A DNA stretch of 24,000 bases from Pseudonocardiaceae bacterium YIM PH 21723 (GTDB taxonomy: Bacteria; Actinomycetota; Actinomycetes; Mycobacteriales; Pseudonocardiaceae): NCBI GenBank assembly GCA_003600225.1, contig QZFT01000034.1, forward strand, positions 191,577-215,576, in the 5' to 3' direction. Shown here one piece after another: positions 7,825 through 20,563 of the stretch. Every line of letters starts with the position of its first letter. Positions within the stretch are counted from its first letter, which is position 1. Under the pieces are notes generated by a model. The model had not been told where the DNA came from and ran no database searches. It was given only the letters and a program-made list of their open reading frames with translations. A program made the position numbers and the translations under genes.

Positions 7825-8280
7825 GTGTCGCGTCCGCCCTTCCCCCCGTTCACCCCGGAGACCGCCGCACAGAAGGTGCAGGCCGCCGAGGACGCCTGGA
7901 ACACCCGCGACCCGGAACGCGTCTCGCTCGCGTACACCCCCGACTCGGTCTGGCGGAACCGCGACACCTTCGTCACCGGCCGCGCCGAGATCGTCGAGTT
8001 CCTGACCGCGAAGTGGCAGCGGGAACAGGACTACGCGCTGCGCAAGAGCCTGTGGGGTTTCCGGGAGAACCGGATCGGCGTGCGCTTCCAGTACGAGTGG
8101 CGCGACGCCGCCGGCCAGTGGTGGCGCAGCTACGGCAACGAGCTGTGGGAGTTCACCGCCGACGGCCTGATGTCCCGCCGCGAGGCGAGCATCAACGACC
8201 TGACGATCACCGAGGCCGAGCGGCGGATCTTCGGTCCACGCCCCGCCGAGGAGCAGGGCGTGGACATCCCGATCCGCTGA
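7825..8280 (+). CDS. DUF1348 / SnoaL-like (NTF2 fold) protein
   Basis: GTG 7825 lies 5 nt after GGAGGAG (7813-7819). The sequence [45 protein letters not shown]...GNELWEF matches my memory of the DUF1348 family. Confidence 0.8.
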
Positions 8281-8727
8281 CTACGCCAGCTCCACCGGCT
8301 TGCGCCCGAGGATGAGGTCCTCCAGGCCCTTGTCCAGGGCGCTCCACCGGGCCACCCAGTCGACGACCAGGTAGAGGCGACCCTGTTCGTCCATGCCGAG
8401 GAAGTAGTGGCCGTAGTTCAGCTCGCCGATCGGGTACAGGGTGACGCCGAGCTCCTCACCCCACTCCTGGAACCGCTCCTCCTCGCCGTCGAGCAGCACC
8501 GGATCGATCTTGAACGGCTCCCTGGCCCTTTCCAGGCCCGGGCCGGAGATGGTCACCGATAGCCCACCGAATTCGGCGAGGAAGCCCTCGACCACGGCAT
8601 TGGGCGCGAACCCGGAGGCCTGGAAGAACTCCCGCCACCGGGAGATGTCCACCCGGCGCTCCGGCGACCAGCCGGCGGCACGCAGGGCCTGCTCGGTATC
8701 ACTGGTGAATCTGCTGTGCTCAGACAT
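8281..8727 (-). CDS. SUKH-3-like immunity protein (148 aa)
   Basis: Internal ATG at 8727, in an 8-nt overlap (ATGTCTGA) with the toxin stop. LRAAGWSPERRVDISRW...FLAEFGGLSVTISGPG...PFKIDP...GEEERFQEWGEELG..LYPIGEL..G.YFLGMDEQGRLYLV matches the SUKH-3 pattern as I recall it. The track's 232-aa version is an N-terminal shadow extension over the toxin gene. Confidence 0.75.
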   Translation of the reverse strand: MSEHSRFTSDTEQALRAAGWSPERRVDISRWREFFQASGFAPNAVVEGFLAEFGGLSVTISGPGLERAREPFKIDPVLLDGEEERFQEWGEELGVTLYPIGELNYGHYFLGMDEQGRLYLVVDWVARWSALDKGLEDLILGRKPVELA

Positions 8728-9286
8728 TGGTGTGCGTGCCCTCCGGGATCCAGTTGAGGCCATAATGGCTGGATAGGACCGAGCAGCTGGCACAGGGTGG
8801 GGCATGGTTCCCGTGCCCGGGCTTGGCGGGGTCATTCTTGATCGACATGGCCGTTGCCGTCGCACCGTGTGGATTGTGCCCGCCATCCAAGGCTGTGCTG
8901 AGGACCTTGGGCATGCCGCACTTGCCGTGGCCGAGACTCCGCTGTGTCTCCGGAATACCGTCCAGCAGACCCTGGACATGCGGGTGCAACGGCGGCGGGT
9001 CGCCCCGGTGACTGAGGTCGACGATCGGGTTCTGCTGACCGCGGATGATGATGCCCTCGGAGATCGCCGGCCGGGCCTTGTTCGGCCGGATGGCAGAGGC
9101 CTGATCCGCGCGCGCCCTGACCCCGTCGAGTAGCCGCTGGTTAGCCGCCTGCTGGTCCCAGGACGGCTGCCGGGTCACCTGGCTGGGACCGCCCCGGTTC
9201 GGGCGCTTGCCGCCCCGGAGCTTTTTCCCGATGTTCTTGAACAGCCCGAGCGTCTTGCCGCCGAGGCCCTTGAACCTGTTAGCCAT
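8720..9286 (-). CDS. Polymorphic-toxin C-terminal module, deaminase-like (YwqJ-like, tentative)
   Basis: 188 aa. The N-terminal Gly/Lys/Arg-rich linker (MANRFKGLGGKTLGLFKNIGKKLRGGKRPNRGG) is followed by LHPHVQGLLDGIPE...GHGKCGMPKVL...APPCASCSVLSSHYGL. PCxxC plus an upstream His/Cys resembles zinc deaminase toxins. The gene sits directly upstream of, and overlaps, a SUKH-3-like gene. Confidence 0.6.
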   Translation of the reverse strand: MANRFKGLGGKTLGLFKNIGKKLRGGKRPNRGGPSQVTRQPSWDQQAANQRLLDGVRARADQASAIRPNKARPAISEGIIIRGQQNPIVDLSHRGDPPPLHPHVQGLLDGIPETQRSLGHGKCGMPKVLSTALDGGHNPHGATATAMSIKNDPAKPGHGNHAPPCASCSVLSSHYGLNWIPEGTHTNV

Positions 9287-9779
9287 TGAGCACCGAGTTC
9301 ATCGCCAGGTTCAGCGCCTGGTCGATCAGCAGCTTGGTGAGCGCCCGGAAGGCCGGGATCTCCAGCAGCGAGGCGCCGAAGGTGACGAACGCGGTCGCGA
9401 TGGCCTGGGCGATCTCCACGGCCAGCATCGCCAGCTGCACGATCACCGCGGTCTTCAACGCGATCACCACGCCGGCGCACACGTAGAGCCCGGTGCCCAC
9501 CAGGGTGGACGCGATCGAGCCGTCCTCCAGGTTCTGCTTCGGTGCCTCGCCGTGCGACCAGAAGGCCTTCAGCTTCTCCATCGCCTCGCCGGAGTTGCTG
9601 CTCAGCATCTGCTGGGTGTGCCCGTCGGTCTCCGAGGCGGTGTGCTCCAGTTTGCCGGCGAACCCCGACCACTGGCCACCGAGGTCGAACATCTTGCCCT
9701 CGTTGCTGAGCGGCCAGTTGAAGCCGAGGGTGTTGAGCAGTCCGGACAACTCGGACGGCAGCATGAGCCCGTTGCTCAC
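9279..9779 (-). CDS. T7SS-effector-type N-terminal (WXG100-like) delivery domain with two TM helices, encoded as a stand-alone protein
   Basis: GTG 9779 overlaps the upstream stop (GTGA), with GGAGG 7 nt upstream; ATG 9764 is an alternative start. The motif MLPSELSGLLNTLGFNWPLSNEGKMFDLGGQWSGFA resembles the N-termini of actinobacterial polymorphic toxins. Hydrophobic segments: STLVGTGLYVCAGVVIAL and VIVQLAMLAVEIAQAIATAFVTF. The TAA at 9279-9281 lies inside the next gene's start (ATGGCTAA). Confidence 0.65.
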   Translation of the reverse strand: MSNGLMLPSELSGLLNTLGFNWPLSNEGKMFDLGGQWSGFAGKLEHTASETDGHTQQMLSSNSGEAMEKLKAFWSHGEAPKQNLEDGSIASTLVGTGLYVCAGVVIALKTAVIVQLAMLAVEIAQAIATAFVTFGASLLEIPAFRALTKLLIDQALNLAMNSVLNG

Positions 9780-10099
9780 TCCAGGCCTCCGGACAGCGTG
9801 TGGAAGAAGGTCTTGTTCATCGACTCGGTCTCGGTGTAGGTGGCGGCCATCTGCTTGACGCCGTCGGCGATCTCGTTCAGCCCCTCGGCGTTGTCCTCGA
9901 AGCACTCGAACGCCGCCTCGGAGATCCCCTGGTAGATCATCCCCAGGATGGATCCGAGGTCGTCGTCGCCGAACGCGTCGGCGAGGGCCGCGGTCTGCGA
10001 GCGGAACGCGGCGATGTCCCCGGTCAGCGCCTGTCCGGCGGCCAGGAGTTTCTGCGCCGTCCCACCGATCATGTCGGGAAGGACGTGGAAATCGGGCAT
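9776..10099 (-). CDS. Small helical WXG100-sized protein (candidate T7SS substrate/partner), 107 aa
   Basis: ATG 10099 with GGGGGGAA 7 nt upstream. The protein looks all-helical, with a central turn AFGDDDLGSILG and no canonical W-x-G. It lies between a YbaB-like gene and the effector N-domain gene. Confidence 0.65.
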   Translation of the reverse strand: MPDFHVLPDMIGGTAQKLLAAGQALTGDIAAFRSQTAALADAFGDDDLGSILGMIYQGISEAAFECFEDNAEGLNEIADGVKQMAATYTETESMNKTFFHTLSGGLE

Positions 10100-10114
10100 G
10101 GTGGTTCCCCCCTG

Positions 10115-10831
10115 CTAATCCAGGTTGTGCATGATCGAGGTCATGCTGCTCGTGTAGGTCCGCAGGTGCTGCATGCTCTGTTCGCGGATAGCCCCGGCCC
10201 GCTCGCTCAGCTTCCGCAGGGCCTCCGGGTCGATCTCCGTGCCACCAGCCGCCTCGGCGCGCCGCTCCCAGGCGGTCAGCGCGGCGTTGACCGCCTGCGC
10301 CACCGCCCGGCCGACCTCACCGGGCGTCATCCGCTGAGCCGGTGCGCTCAGCGTCAGCTCGGTCAGCTCGCCGTCGGTCACCACGGCGATGACCTCGTCC
10401 GCCTCGTCCCGGCCTTCCCCGGTGACCGGCGCGGCGGGCCCGGCGAGCGCGTCCTGCATGGATCGGATCACCTGGAGCGCGTCGTCGAACAGGAAGTCGA
10501 CGTACTGCGGCGACGCGTCTCCCTGGATCCGGGCCTTGCCGGCCAGCTTCGCCATGGACTCCTCCACCGCGCCCTGGATCCGGCGGAAGGTCTCGCCGCT
10601 CTCCCGCGCGACGTCGGTCAGCTGGTCGCCGATCGCGGCGAGGTCCGGGCCGGGATCACCGGCCCGGGGCGACTCGGCGAGGGCCTGCGGCAGGACATCG
10701 TTGACGGCCGCCCGCAGTCGGCCTGACAGCTCACGACCGATATCCGGACCGAGGGTGATCGACGTGATCCGCCGATCGGACATCTTCACCCGGATGGTGC
10801 CCGCGACCTGCGGGTCTTCACGCTGAACCAC
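10115..10831 (-). CDS. Tandem YbaB/EbfC-like domain protein (238 aa)
   Basis: GTG 10831 with a GGGGGG run 4 nt upstream. Two YbaB-like modules are visible: GTIRVKMSDRRITSITLGPDIGRELSGRLRAAVNDVLPQAL and VIAVVTDGELTELTLSAPAQRMTPGEVGRAVAQAVNAAL. It is the first gene of the toxin operon. Confidence 0.65.
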   Translation of the reverse strand: MVQREDPQVAGTIRVKMSDRRITSITLGPDIGRELSGRLRAAVNDVLPQALAESPRAGDPGPDLAAIGDQLTDVARESGETFRRIQGAVEESMAKLAGKARIQGDASPQYVDFLFDDALQVIRSMQDALAGPAAPVTGEGRDEADEVIAVVTDGELTELTLSAPAQRMTPGEVGRAVAQAVNAALTAWERRAEAAGGTEIDPEALRKLSERAGAIREQSMQHLRTYTSSMTSIMHNLD

Positions 10832-11037
10832 ATTGCCCCCCGTGACAGACGATCACTTCGGATGCACCTTAGACCAACCGTTTGGTTGGGCCCCAGGTAC
10901 GTCCGTTGGTTGGCATCGATCACTCCGGGGTATCTCACCCGATAGGAGCGCATGACGGGCGTCACCTGCCTCCAGCCGTGAGGCTGGGCGTATCCCCGGT
11001 GTCCCTAGGGCTACCGGACGTCAGAAAGGACACCGAG

Positions 11038-11250
11038 ATGTCGACCAAGAGCAAGCTGCGCAAACAGGCGAAGGCCCAGGTGGACGACCTGACCGGCAAG
11101 GTCACCGACCTGGCCGAGCAGGTCCAGGAGAAGGTCACCGGCAAGCCGTCCAAGCGCACCCGCACCAAGCGCACCGCGCTGTCGGTGGTGGTACTGCTGG
11201 CCGTACTGGGCGCCCTGGCCACCGTGGTCGCCCGCCGCCAGTCCTCGTGA
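11038..11250 (+). CDS. Small tail-anchored membrane protein (70 aa)
   Basis: ATG 11038 with AAAGGA 8 nt upstream. The N-terminus is a charged helix (KLRKQAKAQVDDLTGKVTDLAEQVQEKV) and the C-terminus is a TM segment (ALSVVVLLAVLGALATVV). The stop overlaps the next start (GTGA, 11247-11250). Confidence 0.6.
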   Translation: MSTKSKLRKQAKAQVDDLTGKVTDLAEQVQEKVTGKPSKRTRTKRTALSVVVLLAVLGALATVVARRQSS

Positions 11251-12317
11251 CCGCACTCAGTCTCGGTATCGAAGAAGAGTTCCTGCTGGTGGATGACCGG
11301 GGCCTGCTCTCAGCGGCGGGCCCCGGCGTCTCCGAGGCCACCGAGGTCGAGGACGGCCAGATCGAGAAGGAACTCAACGCCGTCCAGGTCGAGGCCGCCA
11401 GTTCGGCGAGCACCGACCTGGGCGCGCTGGTCGCCGAACTGGGCGATCTGCGCACCGAACTGGCCACCCAGGCCGCGCGCCGCGACGCGCGGCTGCTGCC
11501 GTGCGGGGTCGCCCCGATGCGGCGGGACGGACCGGTCCCGCTGACCCCGAAGAAACGGCACCGGGAGATCGCCGAACACTTCCGCGCCCTGGTGCAGGAG
11601 GTGCTGACCGGTTCCTGCCACGTGCACATCGGCGTCGACCGGCCGGAGGACGGCCTGCGGATCAGCAACGCCGTGCGGCCCTGGCTGCCGGTGCTGCTCG
11701 CGCTGACCGCGAACTCGCCGCTGCACGACGGCGCGGACACCGGCTACGCCTGCTGGCGACGCACCATGTGGACCCGCTGGCCGTCGGCCGGCGCCCCACC
11801 GGTGTTCGAGTCGGTCGATCACTACGAGTCCCTGGTCGCCGGGCTGCTGGACAGCGGAGCGATCCTGGACCGGGGGCAGGTCTACTGGGACATCCGGCTG
11901 TCCGCGCACCAGCCGACGGTGGAATTCCGCAGCTCCGACGTGGCCGCCGACCCGCAGGTAGCCGGGACCTACGCGGCCCTGCTGCGTGGCCTGGCCGCGC
12001 AGGCCCTGGACGACGAGACCTTCCTGGTGGTGCCCACCGCGGTGCTCACCGGGCACCTGTGGCGAGCCGGCCGCGACGGCCTGGACGGCGACTGCCTGAA
12101 CCCGCTCACCGGCGAGGTGGAACCGGCCTGGCAGGTGCTCGACGCCCTGGTCGACCGGGTGGGCTCGCGGCTGGAGGCCACCGGCGACCACGACTTCGTG
12201 GAGTCGACCCTGGCCCGGATCCGGGAACACGGCAACGGCGCGCAGCGCCAACGCCTCGTCTATGGGGAACGCAAGCAGATCACGGACGTCATCGACGACC
12301 TGGTCTGGAAGCCCTGA
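11247..12317 (+). CDS. Carboxylate-amine ligase, glutamate-cysteine ligase family 2 (YbdK-like)
   Basis: 356 aa. The N-terminal LGIEEEFLLVD motif, the later CHVHIGV and the NSP...G pattern are typical of GCS2/YbdK. Confidence 0.85.
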   Translation: MTALSLGIEEEFLLVDDRGLLSAAGPGVSEATEVEDGQIEKELNAVQVEAASSASTDLGALVAELGDLRTELATQAARRDARLLPCGVAPMRRDGPVPLTPKKRHREIAEHFRALVQEVLTGSCHVHIGVDRPEDGLRISNAVRPWLPVLLALTANSPLHDGADTGYACWRRTMWTRWPSAGAPPVFESVDHYESLVAGLLDSGAILDRGQVYWDIRLSAHQPTVEFRSSDVAADPQVAGTYAALLRGLAAQALDDETFLVVPTAVLTGHLWRAGRDGLDGDCLNPLTGEVEPAWQVLDALVDRVGSRLEATGDHDFVESTLARIREHGNGAQRQRLVYGERKQITDVIDDLVWKP

Positions 12318-12365: not shown

Positions 12366-14933
12366 CTACAGCTTGGGGAGCTCGAACTGTGGGGACATGG
12401 GTCCCCAGCCAACGCCGTTCTTGGCCATCACCCAGAACTCGGCGCGGGCCTTGATGAACGCCTTGCCCAAGCGTTGCCGGTAGGCCGGATCGGTCGTCCG
12501 CGACTGGACCATCAGCCCGGTGTCCCCGAGGATGTTGTTCCGGGAGATCACCGCGTACCCGGTGATCGGCGCTCCCCCGTTGTCCGACGGCGGGTCCCAG
12601 GTGAAGACCAGCTCGTTGGGCCCGGAGTCGTACGTGGCCCGCTGATTCCGCGGCGGTGTGCCCGGCTTCAACGCCCCGATGTGCACCACACCGGTGGTGC
12701 TGCGCTCCGGGCAGCTCCCGGTGGCCGCCTGCCTGGCGATCACTGTGTCCTTCGCCGAGGTGTCCGGCAGCTCGCTGGGCGCCGTGTACTTACCGTCGGC
12801 GGTGATCGTGCCCCGCGCGCCGTCCCGCAGCGCCCAGCTGATCGGCCCGTCGCTGGCGCACCCGGACCGCTTCGTGGCCAGCTGCACGGTCTGCCGCACC
12901 TCGATCTCGGTGACCCCCGGCGTGATCTCCAGGCCGTCGAACGGTCCGCCGCTGTCCCACAGCGTCGCGGCGACCTCGCCCAGCGTGTAGGCGTAGTCCA
13001 CCTTGAACGCCGGCACCCGGAAGGTCAGGTCGGCGCGGATCCCCACGTCGATCTGCGCGAACGGCGTGCGGGACGTGTCGCCGGAGAGCCGGAGGAACGG
13101 GCTGAGCGTCAGACCCGGACCGGCCACGTCGTAGAGCAGGAAGGTGATGTTCGCCGGGAACTCCACCTGGATGGCGGCGTTCGCGGTGAAGTCGGCGGTG
13201 AAGCTCGCCGCCTGCGGCGCGGTGGTGTCGTTGCGCGCCGACCACTGGCCACCCTCGTAGGTGATCGTGCCGGCCACCTGCTGCTCGTACCGGCCCTCGA
13301 AGCTGATCTCCAGTGAGCCCTCCGCGTTCAGCTGCGCGGAGAGGGTCAGCACCGGGCAGATCACGATCGGCACCGGCCCGACGTAGAACGTCTGGCAGGT
13401 GTACTTGATCTCGGCCAGATCCTTGTTCGCCAGCGTCGACTGGATGTACGCTGCGAACTTCCCCTGGATGGAGGACTTCACCTCGGCGCCCGCGGTGAAC
13501 CGGAACGTCGAGTAGTTGACGATGCCGATGCTCAGGTACAGGTCCCAGATCGGCTTGACCGACAGCGAGCCGTGCAGATCGGTGTGCAGCCCGACCTGGG
13601 TGTTGTTGTCCTCATCCATCGGGAAGCTGACGTCCAGGCCCACGTCCCCGCTGATCGACGGGGCCGCCATCCGGATGCCCGGCTGCAAGGCCTGAAACCC
13701 GGCGACCTGCTTGGCCGACATGTCGTTGGACACCTGCGCCTCGGCCTTGGGCACGGCCTCCTCGACGGTGGCCATCTCGGTATCGAGGGTCACCCGGTTG
13801 CCGTCGTCCACCTTGACCGCGGTGACCTTGCGCAGCAGCCCGCCGGCGTTGAACCGGCTGCCCGGCTGCGCCTGGCCGACGACGATCTTGCCCGCGGTCA
13901 GGCCCTTGGCCTGGTCGGTGGCCGGATTGAAGACCACGTTGTCGGCATTGATGTAGGCGATGGTGTTCAGCGTGTCGGTGCTCAGCACCACGGTGTCCGG
14001 CCCCACCTGGACGATCGGCCGCACCCCGTGTTCCGACTGGGTCCCCCGGCCGGTCCCGGCGGCATTGGTGGCGGTCACCGCGATGACGTAGGGCTCGTCG
14101 GCGTTCAGCCCGGTGATCCGGGTGGCGGTGCCGCTGACCGCGATCGGGGTCCCGCTGCCGTAGTACACGTCGTAGCCGGTGATCGGGCTGCCGCCGTCGT
14201 CGTCCGGCGCCTGCCAGGACACGTCGAGGGCGGGCTCGCCGTACACCGGCAGCACCTTCAGCTCGGTCGGCTTCCCCGGCGCGTAGGGCGGGCTGGGCGT
14301 GGCCTTCCTGGTTCCGGCGGTACCGGAGCCCGCCTTGTTCGCGGCGGTCAGCGACACCTGGTACTCGGTGCCGTTGCTCAGCCCGCCGAGGGTCGCGGTC
14401 CGCGCGTCGGCGCCCAGGTTCTGTGCCTGGCCACCCGCGCTCAGCGTGTACCCGGTGAGGTCCGCGCCGTTGTCGTTCGGCGGGTCCCAGGTGACCACGA
14501 TCGACCCGTCCCGGCCCACCGCGGAGGTGATCACCGGGGCCACCGGGGGTGTCGCCTCGCGTGGCACGGTCGGCGAGGAGGGCTCGGAATCCGGGCTCAG
14601 CCGTTTGCTTCCGTCGGTCATGTACGCGGTGAAGGTGTACTTCGTGCCGTTGGTCAGCCCGGCGAACCGGACGGTGGTCTGCCCCCGGGTGTTCGCGCTG
14701 CGGGTCGCGCCGCCGGGCGAGGCGACCAGGACGATGGTGCTGGTGCCGTTGCCGATGATGTACGGCCCGAGTCCCGCCGAAGGGATGAAGGAGACGTCGG
14801 CGCCGCCGTCGCGGGGCAGCGCGCCGGTGACGATGGGTGCCAGGTTGGACGTCGCCAGCGCCGGTGGAGCGGTCAGTCCGATCGTCGCCAGGGCGATGAT
14901 CAGCGGAATGGACAGCCAACGGAGGTGCTTCAT
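12366..14933 (-). CDS. Secreted multi-domain protein: signal peptide, N-terminal FN3 repeats, unassigned beta-rich core, Big_2-like segment, C-terminal FN3
   Basis: ATG 14933 with AGGAGG upstream. Signal peptide: MKHLRWLSIPLIIALATIGLTAPPALA. FN3 hallmarks: WDPPNDNGADLTGY, WQAPDDDGGSPITGY, and C-terminal WDPPSDNGGAPITGY. About 330 central residues carry no motif I recognise. Confidence 0.85.
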   Translation of the reverse strand: MKHLRWLSIPLIIALATIGLTAPPALATSNLAPIVTGALPRDGGADVSFIPSAGLGPYIIGNGTSTIVLVASPGGATRSANTRGQTTVRFAGLTNGTKYTFTAYMTDGSKRLSPDSEPSSPTVPREATPPVAPVITSAVGRDGSIVVTWDPPNDNGADLTGYTLSAGGQAQNLGADARTATLGGLSNGTEYQVSLTAANKAGSGTAGTRKATPSPPYAPGKPTELKVLPVYGEPALDVSWQAPDDDGGSPITGYDVYYGSGTPIAVSGTATRITGLNADEPYVIAVTATNAAGTGRGTQSEHGVRPIVQVGPDTVVLSTDTLNTIAYINADNVVFNPATDQAKGLTAGKIVVGQAQPGSRFNAGGLLRKVTAVKVDDGNRVTLDTEMATVEEAVPKAEAQVSNDMSAKQVAGFQALQPGIRMAAPSISGDVGLDVSFPMDEDNNTQVGLHTDLHGSLSVKPIWDLYLSIGIVNYSTFRFTAGAEVKSSIQGKFAAYIQSTLANKDLAEIKYTCQTFYVGPVPIVICPVLTLSAQLNAEGSLEISFEGRYEQQVAGTITYEGGQWSARNDTTAPQAASFTADFTANAAIQVEFPANITFLLYDVAGPGLTLSPFLRLSGDTSRTPFAQIDVGIRADLTFRVPAFKVDYAYTLGEVAATLWDSGGPFDGLEITPGVTEIEVRQTVQLATKRSGCASDGPISWALRDGARGTITADGKYTAPSELPDTSAKDTVIARQAATGSCPERSTTGVVHIGALKPGTPPRNQRATYDSGPNELVFTWDPPSDNGGAPITGYAVISRNNILGDTGLMVQSRTTDPAYRQRLGKAFIKARAEFWVMAKNGVGWGPMSPQFELPKL

Positions 14934-16342: not shown

Positions 16343-16405
16343 CCCGGAGTTGACGATGTTCGGCTGCCAGGAAATCCATGCGGCCCGAACATCGTCAACT
16401 CCGGA
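16343..16405. repeat. Palindromic intergenic repeat, copy 3
   Basis: The left arm cccggagttgacgatgttcg (16343-16362) is identical to copies 1 and 2. The right arm cgaacatcgtcaactccgg (16386-16404) is perfect over 19 bp. The loop is different and longer (about 21-23 nt, ggctgccaggaaatccatgcggc). It starts 2 nt after the TGA at 16338-16340. Confidence 0.9.
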
Positions 16406-16485
16406 GCCACCGGCCACGAGAAAGATCGGAACGGATCTGTTCGGCGGATGGCCGGCTCGCCGGTCCCCGTGGATATGCTCGGCGG

Positions 16486-19272
16486 ATGTTGTGGGGACTC
16501 GCGGCATTGGCCAGCGGCGTGCTGATGGTGCTGCTCGTGGTGTTCCGTGACCGGGACACCAAACCCGCCAACTGGATCGGCCCGGTGCACGGCCTGGGTG
16601 TGTTCATCGTGTGCTGGAGTGTGTTCGGGGGCGATGTCCCCGCCCTGCCCTGGCTGAGCTCCGCCGTGCTCGGTCTGCTGACCGTCGGCGCGACGCTGAG
16701 TCTTGCCCGCATCTGGGCCGATGAGCGGCGGCCGAATCTGGATCTGGCGTTCGACGCGCACGACGCCGGTCGCACGCTGTTGCAGACCTTCGACGCGACC
16801 GGCGACATCGCGGCCCTGGAGTCGGGGATCGATCAGCTCCGCACGGCGGTGCGATCCAGCGAAGCCGGCACACCGACATACCCCTTTCCCGCCGATATCC
16901 CGCATGCCCGCTACACGGCGAACCTGCTGCTGGCCCTGCGCGGCCGCTACCAGCGGCTCGGCGATCCCGGGGACCTCGACGAGGCCATCGACGCCGGGCA
17001 CCGCGGGATCGAGGCGAGCGGCCGCGATCCGCGCCGGGGCGCACTGCTGGCCCAGCTCAGCGCCGCGCTGCGGCTGCGTCACGAGCACTTCGGCGATGCC
17101 GACGATCTGCAGGACGCGGTGGACATCGCCCGGCAGGGCATGGACGTGTCCCAGGTCAGGGACCGCGCGGACCGGCTGATGTGCACCGGCGAGCTGAGCG
17201 CCGCGCTCCGCGGCCGCTACGAGCAGCACCGCGACCCGGCGGATCTCGATGCGGCGATCGAACACCTGGAGGCCGTGCTGACCGCCGGCCGGGAACGCCT
17301 GGTCCCCACCATCCGGGTCGCCGACCTGACCGCGCTGTCCGGGCTGCTCGTCCAGCGGTACCTGAGCACCGCCGTGGTATCGGATGTCGACCGGGCCGTG
17401 CTGCTGGGCGACCAGGCCGTCGCGAACGCGCCCGCCGGCTTCCGGCAGTACGAGTCGGCGCGCAGCGCCCTGGCGCACGCCTTGACGGTGCGCTTCGCCG
17501 GTGTGGGCGAACGTGCGGACCTGGACCGGGCGATCGACCTGACCCAGCAGGCCCTGGCGGCCACGCCGCCGGATGACCCCAGCCGGGCCCGGCTGCTGCT
17601 CACCGAGGCGACCGGCGTCTTCACCCGGTACCGGTCCACCGGTGAGCCGATCGACCGGGATGTGGCGCTGGCCGCGGCCAGGAAGGCGGCGGCGGACTCC
17701 AGCACCGATACCGTCACCCGGCTGCGTGCCGGGATGCTGTGGACAGAGATCGCGATCTCCGCGGATCGCTACGCCGACGCGGTCACCGGTTTCGAGGGCG
17801 TCATCGAGCTGCTGCCGCGGATCGCCGCGCGTGAACTGCACCGCGGCGACCAGGAGCACCGCCTCGCCCAGTGGACCGGCATCGCCTCGGCGGCCGCCGC
17901 GTGCGCGATCGAGAGCGGTGACCTGGAGAAGGCCGTTCAGCTGCTGGAACAGGGTCGCGGGGTGCTGCTGGCCAGGGAACTGGATGTGACGGCGGGCCTG
18001 CCCCGGCTGCACGCCACACACCCGGAACTGGCTCGCCGGCTGGAGGGGCTACGGCTGAGCCTGGCGGTGGTCTACGAGGCCTCCGACGAGGGGCCCGGCC
18101 GCGAGGCGGAACGCCGGGCGCGGCTGGACCGGCTCGCGGCATGGGACCGGCTGCTCACCGAGATCCGTGGTCAGGACGGCTTCGCCGATTTCGGCCGCCC
18201 ACCGCGGATCGAGGAATTCCTGCGGGCAGCCGACCACGGCCCGGTGATCATCCTCAACGTCTCCGGGCACCGGTCGGACGCGATCATCCTGGCGCAGGGC
18301 GGAATCCGGTCGATCCCGCTTCCCGGAGTCACCCCGGACACGGTGGACGCGCAGCTCGGCACGGTGACCGCTGCGGTAGGGCCGCGGGAGCTGCTGGATC
18401 TCGCGGCGCAGCGGCGGCTGGACTCGGTGCTGCGCGGGCTGTGGGCGGATCTCGTCTCGCCGGTGCTGCGCGAACTGGGCATCCACGCGCCAGGCCCCGG
18501 GGAGGATCTACCGCGACTCTGGTGGGTTCCCACCGGTCCCCTCGCCCTGCTCCCCATCCACGCCGCCGGCCTGCACGACACTCGCGCTTCGGCGGATCCC
18601 CAGACGCTGGTCGACCGGACGGTGTCCTCCTACGCCCCCACCGTGCGTTCGCTGAGCCGCACCTCCGCCGCTCCCGCACCGGGCATGCGGGCGGCGGAAC
18701 CACTGGTGGTGGCCATGTCCGCCACCCCGGACCACGCGGAGCTGCCCGGGGCGCCCGCCGAAACGGACATCGTGCGCCGATTCGCCCCGGCCGCCCGGAT
18801 CCTGGCGGACGAGCAGGCGACCCGGCAGAGCGTGCTGGACGCACTGCCCGGACGGTCGCTGGTCCACTTCGTCTGCCACGCGGTCACCGACCCCCGTTCC
18901 CCCTCCCGGGCGCGGCTGCTGCTGCACGATCACCGGAACGCCGGGCTCACCGTGCTGGACATCTCCCGGCTGCTGCTGTCCGACGGCGAGCTGGCCTACC
19001 TCTCGGCCTGCGAGACCGCCATGCCCGGGACCCGCATCGCCGACGAGGCGATCCACCTGTCGTCCGCGTTCCAGCTGGCCGGGTTCCGACAGGTGATCGC
19101 GGGCCTGTGGCAGCTGCACGACAAGGTAGCCGTCCGATTCGCCGAGGAGGTGTATCGGCGGTTCGAGGAGATGGAACCGGCGCGCGCGGTACGGGAGGCG
19201 ACGCTCAGCGCCCGGGAACTGATGCCCAACCTGCCGGGCCTATGGGCCGGTCACGTCCACATTGGACGGTGA
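16486..19272 (+). CDS. Membrane-anchored TPR-repeat CHAT-domain protein (caspase-like protease fold)
   Basis: ATG 16486 is the first in-frame ATG outside the repeat; the track start at 16378 lies in the repeat loop. Three N-terminal hydrophobic segments are followed by repeats marked DLDEAID, DLQDAVD, DLDAAIE, DVDRAVL and DLDRAID. The C-terminal module has LVHFVCHAV (His codon 18877-18879) and YLSACETA (Cys codon 19009-19011), as in CHAT domains. Confidence 0.8.
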   Translation: MLWGLAALASGVLMVLLVVFRDRDTKPANWIGPVHGLGVFIVCWSVFGGDVPALPWLSSAVLGLLTVGATLSLARIWADERRPNLDLAFDAHDAGRTLLQTFDATGDIAALESGIDQLRTAVRSSEAGTPTYPFPADIPHARYTANLLLALRGRYQRLGDPGDLDEAIDAGHRGIEASGRDPRRGALLAQLSAALRLRHEHFGDADDLQDAVDIARQGMDVSQVRDRADRLMCTGELSAALRGRYEQHRDPADLDAAIEHLEAVLTAGRERLVPTIRVADLTALSGLLVQRYLSTAVVSDVDRAVLLGDQAVANAPAGFRQYESARSALAHALTVRFAGVGERADLDRAIDLTQQALAATPPDDPSRARLLLTEATGVFTRYRSTGEPIDRDVALAAARKAAADSSTDTVTRLRAGMLWTEIAISADRYADAVTGFEGVIELLPRIAARELHRGDQEHRLAQWTGIASAAAACAIESGDLEKAVQLLEQGRGVLLARELDVTAGLPRLHATHPELARRLEGLRLSLAVVYEASDEGPGREAERRARLDRLAAWDRLLTEIRGQDGFADFGRPPRIEEFLRAADHGPVIILNVSGHRSDAIILAQGGIRSIPLPGVTPDTVDAQLGTVTAAVGPRELLDLAAQRRLDSVLRGLWADLVSPVLRELGIHAPGPGEDLPRLWWVPTGPLALLPIHAAGLHDTRASADPQTLVDRTVSSYAPTVRSLSRTSAAPAPGMRAAEPLVVAMSATPDHAELPGAPAETDIVRRFAPAARILADEQATRQSVLDALPGRSLVHFVCHAVTDPRSPSRARLLLHDHRNAGLTVLDISRLLLSDGELAYLSACETAMPGTRIADEAIHLSSAFQLAGFRQVIAGLWQLHDKVAVRFAEEVYRRFEEMEPARAVREATLSARELMPNLPGLWAGHVHIGR

Positions 19273-19425
19273 GCCGGCTTCCGGCTCAGCCGGGCGGGCA
19301 CTCGCCCCCGCCGCCTCGTCCGGGGCGGCGTCCGGCTCGGCGATCCCATCCCGTGGGGTGTAGCCGCGTACCTCGGCGGGTTCGGCGAGCAGCATGCGTT
19401 CGTACGGGGTCAATTCGGTCATCAT
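19240..19425 (-). CDS. Possible small acidic protein (60-61 aa), third gene of the membrane operon
   Basis: Tandem ATGs at 19425 and 19422 overlap the upstream TGA, with GGAGGA immediately upstream. Translation: MMTELTPYERMLLAEPAEVRGYTPRDGIAEPDAAPDEAAG... Caveats: 13 of 61 codons end in A/T, and the 3' end overlaps the CHAT gene by 33 nt. Confidence 0.3.
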   Translation of the reverse strand: MMTELTPYERMLLAEPAEVRGYTPRDGIAEPDAAPDEAAGASARPAEPEAGSPSNVDVTGP

Positions 19426-20060
19426 TCCTCCTGCGGCAAGGCGTGCACGAGCTCGACGATGTCCGCGTCCTCGCCGCGCAGGTACAGGCCCGCCGTATGC
19501 CCGACCCGCCCGGTGAACGCGCCATCCGGCCGCATCCGCCACGCCGATTCCAGGTACAGGCCCTCCGGCTCGGGATACGACGTGGCGTAGGAGTTCGATC
19601 CGTACCAGCCACCGATCCAGGTGCCGTCCTTCAACCGGACCCGCACGAAGCAGGACCCCCGCGTGCGGAACATGTGATCCCACGCGGTCCGGTTGGACCG
19701 GTACCCCGCGGGCCGGCGGCGCCGTTCCCACAACGAGACGCCGAAGGCGGCCGCAGCGGGCACCACCACCAGCAGCACCAGCGCCGTCAGCCCGACCGCC
19801 TCCGGACGCTGGACCAGGCCGTTCCACCCCGTGCGGCCGTCACCGCGCAGCAGGCGGATCAGGAAGGAACCCGCGACCGCCAGGTACAGGGAGCCCAGCA
19901 GCACCGAGGCAGCGACCGCCCGCAGCACCCGTTCACCGAGATTGCGCTCACCGCTGACCGGGCCACGCATGCGCTCCCGCAGGAACTGGTAGGTGACACC
20001 GGGCAGTACCAGCAGCACCAGCAGCGTGGCCTGGGTCAGGTTGGACGGAGCCGGTCCCAT
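19422..20060 (-). CDS. Membrane protein with a soluble C-terminal domain (resembles DUF6338 as I recall it)
   Basis: ATG 20060 lies 2 nt after the upstream stop. 212 aa with three hydrophobic segments, then WDHMF...CFVRVRLKDGTWIGGWYG...EGLYLE...GLYLRGEDADIVELV. The track's 329-aa version extends over the upstream gene. Confidence 0.65.
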   Translation of the reverse strand: MGPAPSNLTQATLLVLLVLPGVTYQFLRERMRGPVSGERNLGERVLRAVAASVLLGSLYLAVAGSFLIRLLRGDGRTGWNGLVQRPEAVGLTALVLLVVVPAAAAFGVSLWERRRRPAGYRSNRTAWDHMFRTRGSCFVRVRLKDGTWIGGWYGSNSYATSYPEPEGLYLESAWRMRPDGAFTGRVGHTAGLYLRGEDADIVELVHALPQEE

Positions 20061-20062
20061 GC

Positions 20063-20563
20063 TCAGATCTCCGGCAGGTTGCGCGGGTCGTACCGCGTCG
20101 GCGGTGGGGGCGCGGGCTGTGCGGGCCCCTTGCGCCTGATGGCCACGGCGAGGATCAGTATCAGCACCAGACCACCGGCACCCAGCCAGTAGCGGTAGCC
20201 GTCGGTCCACTGGATCAACGCCGCGCTCTTCTCGACCCCGACGTTGCTGAAGACCAGATAGACCAGACCGGGCAGGGCGGGCGGCAACACCAGGCACGAC
20301 AGCAACAGGATCCCCGTGACCAGCGCGACGAATCCCACGAGCGCGGGCGGGTGATCGAACCCGGAGAGCAGCCAGCCGATCCCGGCCGCGGTCATGACCG
20401 CTCCGCCCCACAGCAGGATCGCCTGGGTGAACCTGGCCAGCCCGGACTGGGTCAGCCGGCTGTTCCTGGCCCGGCGCGCGGCGATCGGCGGCAGGACCAC
20501 ACCGATGAAGAAGGCCAGCACGGCGACGATCACCAGGATCAGGGTCAGGGTGCTCAACGTCAC
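20063..20563 (-). CDS. Integral membrane protein (166 aa, about 4-5 TM), unknown function
   Basis: GTG 20563. The sequence is strongly hydrophobic (LTLILVIVAVLAFFIGVVLPPIA, AILLWGGAVMTAAGIGWLL, ALVGFVALVTGILLLSCLVL, LGAGGLVLILILAVAI) with a Pro-rich tail. No clear Shine-Dalgarno is present. Confidence 0.55.
   Translation of the reverse strand: MTLSTLTLILVIVAVLAFFIGVVLPPIAARRARNSRLTQSGLARFTQAILLWGGAVMTAAGIGWLLSGFDHPPALVGFVALVTGILLLSCLVLPPALPGLVYLVFSNVGVEKSAALIQWTDGYRYWLGAGGLVLILILAVAIRRKGPAQPAPPPPTRYDPRNLPEI

Follow-up and report, generated by a model that had tools for sequence, protein, structure and literature searches.

WXG-headed polymorphic toxins are a known kind of system, and in CpnT, Eat, WXG-type and LXG systems alike the targeting domain and the toxin are part of one polypeptide. 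Secretion of CpnT/TNT depends on ESX systems encoded elsewhere (PMC7810871, PMC8092274, PMC8593097). Eat loci encode antibacterial toxins secreted by ESX-4, lie scattered in the genome and carry diverse payloads across Actinomycetota, and experimental proof of antibacterial toxins of actinobacterial type VII secretion systems (T7SS) came only in 2026 (PMC13444075). Here we analyzed a five-gene cassette at positions 8281-10831 of a 24-kb stretch of DNA (the window) from Pseudonocardiaceae bacterium YIM PH 21723, with locus tags D5S17_15210-15225. We read this cassette, with a probability of about 0.6, as one copy of a widespread actinomycete system of T7SS-targeted split ("cargo") polymorphic toxins.

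An earlier note on the window had described five co-directional minus-strand genes, joined by a GTGA and two 8-nt overlaps and arranged in a delivery, toxin and immunity grammar. Its coordinates and junctions were confirmed, and the genes, named g1 to g5, have the following features:

g1, 10831..10115, minus strand: tandem YbaB/EbfC-like protein, proposed substrate chaperone (238 residues, GTG start)
g2, 10099..9776, minus strand: divergent WXG100/EsxB-like helical hairpin (107 residues, net charge -13)
g3, 9779..9279, minus strand: WXG100_2 (CpnT-N-terminal-like) hairpin with a hydrophobic C-terminal half, proposed carrier (166 residues, GTG start)
g4, 9286..8720, minus strand: YwqJ-like deaminase-fold toxin candidate with a basic leader (188 residues)
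g5, 8727..8281, minus strand: SUKH-3 immunity protein (148 residues, net charge -11)
9776-9779, minus strand: g2/g3 junction GTGA, read from the sequence
9279-9286, minus strand: g3/g4 stop/start overlap of 8 nt, ATGGCTAA, read from the sequence
8720-8727, minus strand: g4/g5 stop/start overlap of 8 nt, ATGTCTGA, read from the sequence
9824..9838, minus strand: candidate T7SS export motif Y88-x-x-x-E92 of g2, from conservation in g2 homologs
9348..9518, minus strand: hydrophobic segment of g3, about residues 88-144, from Kyte-Doolittle values
9152..9286, minus strand: leader of g4, residues 1-45, basic and Gly-rich, beginning MANRFKGLGGKTLGLFKNIGKKLRGGKRPNRGG (net charge +10)
8747..9145, minus strand: toxin domain of g4, residues ~48-180, YwqJ-like deaminase fold, from Pfam PF14431

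G+C content at third codon positions (GC3) is 0.84-0.96 in the five genes, the same range as in neighboring genes, which argues that all five frames are real coding sequence with the codon habits of the host. Both g1 and g2 are preceded by G-rich ribosome-binding runs, with GGGGGG standing 4 nt before the GTG of g1.

A constant module with variable payloads

In species-representative genomes, at least 385 loci encode a relative of g3, and 80 of them were fetched with 10-kb flanks and compared together with the window (81 loci). Hosts of the fetched loci include Pseudonocardiales (Lentzea, Amycolatopsis, Saccharothrix, Actinosynnema, Saccharopolyspora, Umezawaea), Micromonosporales (Micromonospora, Dactylosporangium, Actinoplanes, Asanoa), Streptosporangiales (Actinomadura, Spirillospora) and Glycomycetales (Glycomyces). 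By tblastn, g3 was found in 81/81 loci, g2 directly upstream of g3 in 74/81 and g1 upstream of g2 in 46/81, in constant order, and clustering of open reading frames (ORFs) placed g1 in 61 loci. The module therefore recurs, and the g4-g5 pair was found in 0/80 other loci, occurring only in the window.

Clustering divides the first genes downstream of g3 into at least 16 unrelated groups, and every group is matched by a separate cluster of second genes. Representative toxins in this position include EndoU, Endonuclea_NS_2, Ntox21, an XOO_2897 deaminase, HNH and a 1200-residue DUF6531+RHS protein, and their representative partners are SUKH-4 and YezG-like proteins, joined by a SUFU-type protein in Thermomonospora curvata and SUKH-3 in the window. 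What stays constant across these loci is the g1-g2-g3 module; it is followed by a toxin gene that varies but retains a basic leader, and then by the cognate immunity gene, an arrangement that agrees with the grammar proposed earlier. The family has the constant trafficking part of a polymorphic toxin system, at least 16 unrelated toxin clusters (six known toxin families) and an immunity gene directly downstream, but it does not have trafficking and toxin domains in one polypeptide, as g3 ends at 166 residues and g4 has its own start.

Two loci contain two g2-g3 pairs close together (L058, 7611-8416 and 9675-10489; L067, 10001-10477 and 19408-20220); the Spirillospora pairs are arranged in tandem, and those of Actinomadura are inverted at a distance of ~9 kb.

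The break between g3 and toxin is itself conserved. In 64/81 loci the toxin gene starts 8 nt before the g3 stop, following an [AG]TG-NNN-TA[AG]/TGA pattern, and the 8-nt junction takes the form ATGGCTAG, ATGGCTAA, ATGCCTAA or GTGCCTAG. Since most loci place the toxin gene in the +1 frame with respect to g3 (overlaps of -8 and -11), and since fused versions of the g3 domain exist in Streptomyces, a +1 ribosomal frameshift at the overlap might be thought to make a single g3-g4 fusion and restore a classical single-chain polymorphic toxin. We reject this very improbable reading on the ground that other loci have spacings of -1, -4 or positive values, which place the two genes in different frames. 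In addition, each downstream gene has its own ATG or GTG exactly at the overlap, the window junction has no slippery or prfB-like context, and none of the g3 homologs listed is fused. Among the matches listed, out of 147 g3 relatives, all 120 stand alone with 153-167 residues, so g3 is not a fragment of a broken gene.

The proteins encoded after g3 share a strongly basic N-terminus. Over the first 45 residues, mean net charge was +8.5 for first-downstream proteins, -4.0 for second-downstream proteins and +1.75 for background ORFs. A G-hydrophobic-F-x-P-x3-4-L-R-K motif occurred in 41/76 first-downstream proteins, 0/73 partners and 3/915 background ORFs; as the motif was defined with the sequences already in view, these counts are purely descriptive. 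The g4 leader, MANRFKGLGGKTLGLFKNIGKKLRGGKRPNRGG, is a close variant of this motif. A Tat or Sec signal was ruled out for the g4 leader, which has no hydrophobic core.

In Thermomonospora curvata DSM 43183 (L083, CP001738.1, record range 809144-829638), positions 9675-11586 hold g2-g3 followed, with the same 8-nt overlap, by a 173-residue basic-leader gene at which the source annotation calls only a 45-residue piece. The SUFU-type gene is next, and a 139-residue YbaB gene lies on the opposite strand just downstream. T. curvata is a model organism for T7SS, and the structure of its T7SS ATPase has been studied.

The proteins of the cassette

Profile hidden Markov model searches put g3, g4 and g5 above the cut-offs of the WXG100_2, YwqJ-deaminase and SUKH-3 families, and left g2 below that of WXG100 and g1 without a YbaB match in Pfam; NCBIfam added nothing to these family calls. 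For g3, the WXG100_2 match (PF25547) covers residues 19-141 with E 2.9e-13 and 50.5 bits against a cut-off of 27. The AlphaFold model of g3 (predicted local distance difference test score, pLDDT, 75) is all-helical, with a helix at residues 80-129 and several short helices, and its hairpin superposes on EsxA, EsxB and EsxEF structures with template modeling scores of 0.8-0.87 and root-mean-square deviations of 1.2-2.2 Å; a profile search against PDB sequences returned nothing meaningful. The two transmembrane helices that had been proposed for this protein appear as one continuous hydrophobic stretch of ~55 residues (Kyte-Doolittle 19-residue mean of at least 1.6 at window centers 97-135), containing invariant polar residues K109, Q115, Q125, T129, T133, S137 and E140. 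In Streptomyces plasmids, a g3-type domain, with its LPxE..LGxxWP motif and hydrophobic helices, is the N-terminus of a single-chain 1589-residue RHS toxin, and this fusion shows the g3 domain to serve in toxin trafficking and the g3 family to be its split form.

On plasmid p1 of Streptomyces sp. BHT-5-2 (L082, 910-5002), a g2-like gene accompanies a g3-like protein that is extended by a Lys-rich helical tail of ~170 residues with no recognizable toxin. A second WXG-type protein with a Pro/Gln-rich N-terminus is encoded just upstream.

The proposal that g2 is a helical protein of WXG100 size was strengthened by family profiles, which make it EsxB-like. A profile built from 39 g2 family members matched the T. 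curvata Esx protein 4lws_A with E 2.5e-5 and several EsxB/CFP-10 chains, over the full length, at ~0.01-0.03. The family conserves a (F/W)G-x-DD-x-GS turn, which in the window reads F43-G44-D-D-D-L-G49; G44, D46 and G49 are invariant, and several homologs read W-G-G-DD-x-G. Near the C-terminus, Y88xxxE92 has its Y in 83% and its E in 80% of 75 homologs, Yxxx[DE] occurs within the last 40 residues in 62/75, and the motif aligns with YEAREE of 4lws_A. Y88xxxE92 matches the general T7SS export motif and is a candidate export signal of g2.

Assignment of g1 to YbaB comes from its relatives and its predicted fold: full-length homologs match PF02575, and the AlphaFold model resembles YbaB structures. 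Against a PF02575 cut-off of 25.5 bits, g1 homologs of ~277 residues scored 39.7 bits in two stretches (P0131), 34.8 (P0144) and 25.7 (P0127, 276 residues, matching at residues 169-231). The g1 model (pLDDT 76) contains two strand-strand(-strand)-helix units of YbaB type, the first without its leading helix, and its top meaningful fold matches are the YbaB structures 1pug, 1j8b, 1ybx, 3f42 and 5yrx, with probabilities of 0.8-1.0 and E values of only 0.01-0.08. The earlier note mentioned YbaB-like proteins as companions of ESX loci; the YbaB-like EspD, EspH and EspL have been documented to chaperone ESX substrates (PMC6107294, PMC6319747), and YbaB/EspL-like genes are found in SigM/ESX-4-regulon operons of M. 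abscessus (PMC13491425).

Fold and homologs thus uphold the tandem YbaB description of g1, but the window gene is not intact. It lacks the first ~38 residues of its ~277-residue relatives, including a paralog in the same genome, and with them the helix that opens the first YbaB unit. The GTG is preceded, 21 nt away, by an in-frame TGA, and no remnant of the ~38 missing residues was found in any frame of the upstream DNA (10832-10905). Judged from the sequence, the 5' end of the operon is lost or replaced.

The g4 protein had been called deaminase-like for its HGKC...PPCASC motif, and the family call stands, with a match to YwqJ-deaminase (PF14431) at E 5.8e-7 and 30.2 bits against a cut-off of 25.9. 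A word-seeded search of 5.8 billion clustered proteins returned no close relative other than g4 itself, and PDB sequences gave nothing meaningful. An exhaustive HMMER search with g4 found 200 distant relatives at E<=1e-3. They range from 57 to 3370 residues, and the part that aligns with g4 residues ~48-180 is their extreme C-terminus, a placement that, given such unequal lengths, marks a polymorphic-toxin end module. Residues 1-45 lie outside every one of these distant toxin-domain matches.

Within the toxin domain H120, C123 and P164-C165-A-S-C168 are conserved, the last being a PCxxC zinc motif (>=95%). What the HGKC motif does not have is the catalytic glutamate: at C123-G-M125 (8912-8920), Met occupies the canonical CxE glutamate position, so that the [HC]xE motif is absent. 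Among 138 relatives with the motif, 94 have Glu at this position in HGxC[A/V/C]E, whereas the 44 closest to g4 have HGxCG[L/F/M], with L, F, M, Y or T at the position. A second glutamate, E77 (9056-9058), is invariant in the glutamate-less subclade (37 aligned relatives) and is mostly Ala in the canonical group. Because the missing CxE glutamate and the invariant E77 are reciprocal and extend throughout the subclade, we favor relocation of the catalytic glutamate over decay; by this sequence pattern it appears to have moved from the CxE helix to E77.

These features of g1 and g4 bear on whether the window copy still works as a weapon. It might instead be a decaying or immunity-only cassette, kept mainly because g5 protects against the toxins of relatives, with an impaired chaperone and an inactive toxin. 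The absence of ~38 N-terminal residues from g1, together with any ancestral upstream region, would fit such a history, as would C-G-M in place of C-x-E in g4, the wedging of the cassette against the DUF1348 stop, and the fuller paralogous module in the same genome (D5S17_03825-03835; P0002 for g3 and the 276-residue P0127 for g1). However, all five frames are open with native GC3, the overlaps are intact, as are the G-runs for ribosome binding, loss of the glutamate extends to a subclade in which all 37 aligned relatives have E77 and is therefore a family trait rather than decay, and shorter forms of g1 occur in other loci (P0132, 201 residues; P0148, 205 residues). We consider decay of the window copy unlikely.

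The last protein, g5, was correctly described as SUKH-3-like and matches PF14433 over essentially its full length (profile positions 1-145 of 146, E 1.6e-28, 100.1 bits against a cut-off of 23). A toxin and its neutralizer that are adjacent and translationally coupled, with no secretion genes nearby, could also act inside the cell, as a toxin-antitoxin or anti-phage system, instead of being an exported weapon. We give this hardly any credence: the toxin domain of g4, like its relatives, is of a type that sits at the C-terminal end of long exported toxins, RHS-type ones among them; the SUKH, SUFU and YezG families to which the partners belong serve for immunity in polymorphic toxin systems (PMC3482391); and an intracellular system would have no role for the Esx-like constant module.

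A proposed export route and its genomic setting

In the split-toxin system that we favor, g2, with its EsxB-like fold and YxxxE, would pair with the N-terminal hairpin of g3 in a four-helix bundle, and the ATPase of a type VII (ESX-type) system, encoded at another place in the genome, would recognize the bundle as a composite signal. The g1 protein would work in the cytoplasm as a chaperone, like EspD, EspH and EspL, and may cover the hydrophobic half of g3. Translation of g4 by termination-reinitiation at the 8-nt overlap would keep it in a fixed ratio to g3, and g4 would then travel as non-covalent cargo, its cationic leader docking on the acidic g2-g3 complex; the net charges are -13 for g2, -6 for the N-terminal half of g3 and +10 for the g4 leader. 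In the producer, g5 would block g4. More speculatively, the polar-studded hydrophobic helices of g3 may insert into the target membrane after export and aid entry of the toxin. Such a role at the target membrane is plausible, given that nearly every payload has nucleic acids as its target and so needs access to the cytoplasm.

These steps can be combined into a broader, tentative proposal, which we hold with clearly less confidence than the reading of the cassette as a split toxin system. In such a cargo-type T7SS, a membrane-inserting g3, together with g2 and g1, would export any toxin that bears a cationic leader of ~30 residues and would aid its crossing of the target membrane, and the 8-nt overlap would serve both as a stoichiometry device and as a fixed recombination boundary for toxin-immunity swaps.

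Several observations weigh against the T7SS-targeted split-toxin reading. The window contains no T7SS core gene, as the earlier note had observed of secretion machinery, and T7SS core genes were not among the conserved neighbors of the 80 related loci, where recurrent neighbors were clustered and ten representatives scanned. Across these loci conservation within 10 kb of g3 is limited to g1 and g2, and the recurrent neighbors are metabolic or unrelated genes that reflect local synteny. At the level of the proteins, PE and WXG100 matches of g2 in Pfam are sub-threshold (WXG100 15.4 bits against a cut-off of 27.3) and the window copy of g2 has FG instead of WG at its turn; the N-terminally shortened g1 could leave the window copy impaired; and "deaminase" is, for g4, a fold assignment whose activity is uncertain without the canonical glutamate. 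A hydrophobic run of ~55 residues is unusual for a secretion substrate, and g3 might stay in the membrane of the producer. T7SS dependence, like g2-g3 pairing, the chaperone role of g1 and docking of the leader, is an inference.

Some of the same observations can be assembled into a T7SS-independent release mechanism, in which g3 oligomerizes in the producer membrane as a holin-like or dedicated pore through which the toxin exits, with g1 and g2 confined to the control of its assembly. Neither the window nor the 80 related loci show a linked T7SS gene, a long hydrophobic segment with invariant polar residues is expected of an oligomeric membrane structure, and the 1:1 translational coupling of g3 and toxin is conserved. 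A pore of this kind nevertheless gives no reason for g2 to have a conserved YxxxE and an Esx-like turn or for g3 to have a WXG100 hairpin, and the same N-terminal domain heads RHS toxins of 1589 residues, which are too large for a simple small pore. Moreover, T7SS substrates are often encoded apart from the core locus (PMC13444075). We judge release through such a pore to be improbable, and T7SS-targeted export of a split toxin remains our preferred reading.

With regard to its position, the cassette ends without any spacer at its 3' neighbor, as noted earlier, the g5 stop (8281-8283) touching the DUF1348 stop (8278-8280). The intergenic region upstream of g1 (10832..11034, minus strand) is the presumed location of the promoter, although no promoter was recognized there and a scan of 8000-11400 found neither a sigma-70-like site nor a terminator. 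Other genes in the window encode major facilitator superfamily (MFS) transporters, an S9 peptidase, TetR regulators, DUF1348, a GCS2 ligase, a fibronectin type III protein, a CHAT protein and acyl-CoA enzymes. Divergent from the cassette, an ORF at 11035-11250 (plus strand) encodes a Lys-rich protein of 71 residues with a C-terminal hydrophobic tail and no Pfam match, and its stop overlaps the GTG start of the GCS2 ligase by 4 nt. At 12366-14933 (minus strand) lies a gene for a secreted protein of 855 residues with three fibronectin type III domains and a long C-terminal region without a family match. A 964-residue protein with a C-terminal CHAT (caspase-like) domain (16378-19272, plus strand) adjoins a DUF6338 protein (19422-20411, minus strand), and this pair (16378-20411) may be an unrelated conflict system.

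Low G+C content had been offered as a sign that the cassette is mobile. The underlying count of 116/180 G+C at 8761-8940 is exact, but it falls at the 12th percentile of 180-nt windows in the region, and the whole cassette has 68.1% G+C compared to 69.8% for the rest. No flanking direct or inverted repeats were found around the cassette, a phage collection gave no match to it, and plasmids gave no close matches, only distant fused relatives. Because GC3 is native, the compositional case for a mobile cassette is weak.

Relation to described toxin systems

The esxF-esxE-cpnT-ift locus of M. tuberculosis resembles the cassette in having small Esx-type genes upstream, a domain of WXG100_2/CpnT-N-terminal type, a toxin and an adjacent immunity gene, and the Pfam model matched by g3 was built on the CpnT N-terminal domain. 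In CpnT, however, the toxin is in the same polypeptide, whereas the cassette encodes it as a separate gene; an EsxE/EsxF pair takes the place of one Esx-like and one YbaB-like gene; and the toxin is an NAD+ glycohydrolase rather than a deaminase-fold protein. Hosts of the cassette family are not known to have a mycolate outer membrane.

The Eat loci of M. abscessus (TapA1/TapA2-EatA-EatI) likewise combine small helical partners, a toxin with a helical targeting region and an immunity gene, but in EatA a single chain of 400-1000 residues holds both the helical domain and the toxin, unlike the split g3 and g4, and the available part of the Eat description includes no YbaB gene, hydrophobic carrier or cationic-leader cargo (PMC13444075). 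Closer in sequence are the WXG-type actinobacterial polymorphic toxins (Zhang et al. 2012), including the Streptomyces plasmid RHS protein in L081, which have the same N-terminal domain as g3, with LPxE..LGxxWP and hydrophobic helices. They share their C-terminal toxin repertoire and the SUKH, SuFu and YezG immunity families with the cassette family (PMC3482391). These toxins are tripartite single chains, whereas members of the g3 family terminate behind the hydrophobic helices and leave the toxin to a second gene, whose start lies 8 nt ahead of the g3 stop codon.

The ESX-1 trios EspA-EspC-EspD and EspE-EspF-EspH, together with EspL, present another parallel, since they too combine a YbaB-like protein, a hairpin of ~100 residues and a longer helical partner, and their YbaB-like member stabilizes its cognate substrates (PMC6107294, PMC6319747). 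A Pfam scan at E<=1 gave no match of g2 or g3 to EspC, EspA or another Esp family, and the trios differ from the cassette in that g1 has two YbaB units and the trios have no toxin or immunity genes. In the T7SSb of Bacillota, LXG toxins and their Lap factors follow a logic like that proposed here, with small helical partners and a helical domain of the toxin forming a composite T7SS signal, in polymorphic toxin-immunity loci with dedicated chaperones (PMC10801868, PMC12478183). They belong to another phylum and another T7SS subtype, and the LXG domain is covalently linked to the toxin. Type VI secretion systems offer a mechanistic analogy only, as their machinery and proteins are unrelated: the same toxin domains are either fused to a carrier, as in specialized effectors, or bound to it non-covalently, as cargo effectors.

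No description of the split arrangement was found in the full-text literature searched, whose coverage is incomplete, so this is absence of evidence only. The split design, present in at least 385 loci, keeps targeting part and payload separate and joins them only by a short leader, making the recognition step directly testable, and the short leader suggests a portable tag for exporting foreign proteins from actinomycetes. The g4 subclade, a group of deaminase-fold toxins with an apparently moved catalytic glutamate, is relevant to the search for new nucleic-acid deaminases. Compared with the CpnT, Eat, WXG-type and LXG systems, the cassette family is set apart by its stop/start split, its cationic-leader cargo, its hydrophobic carrier and its tandem YbaB partner.

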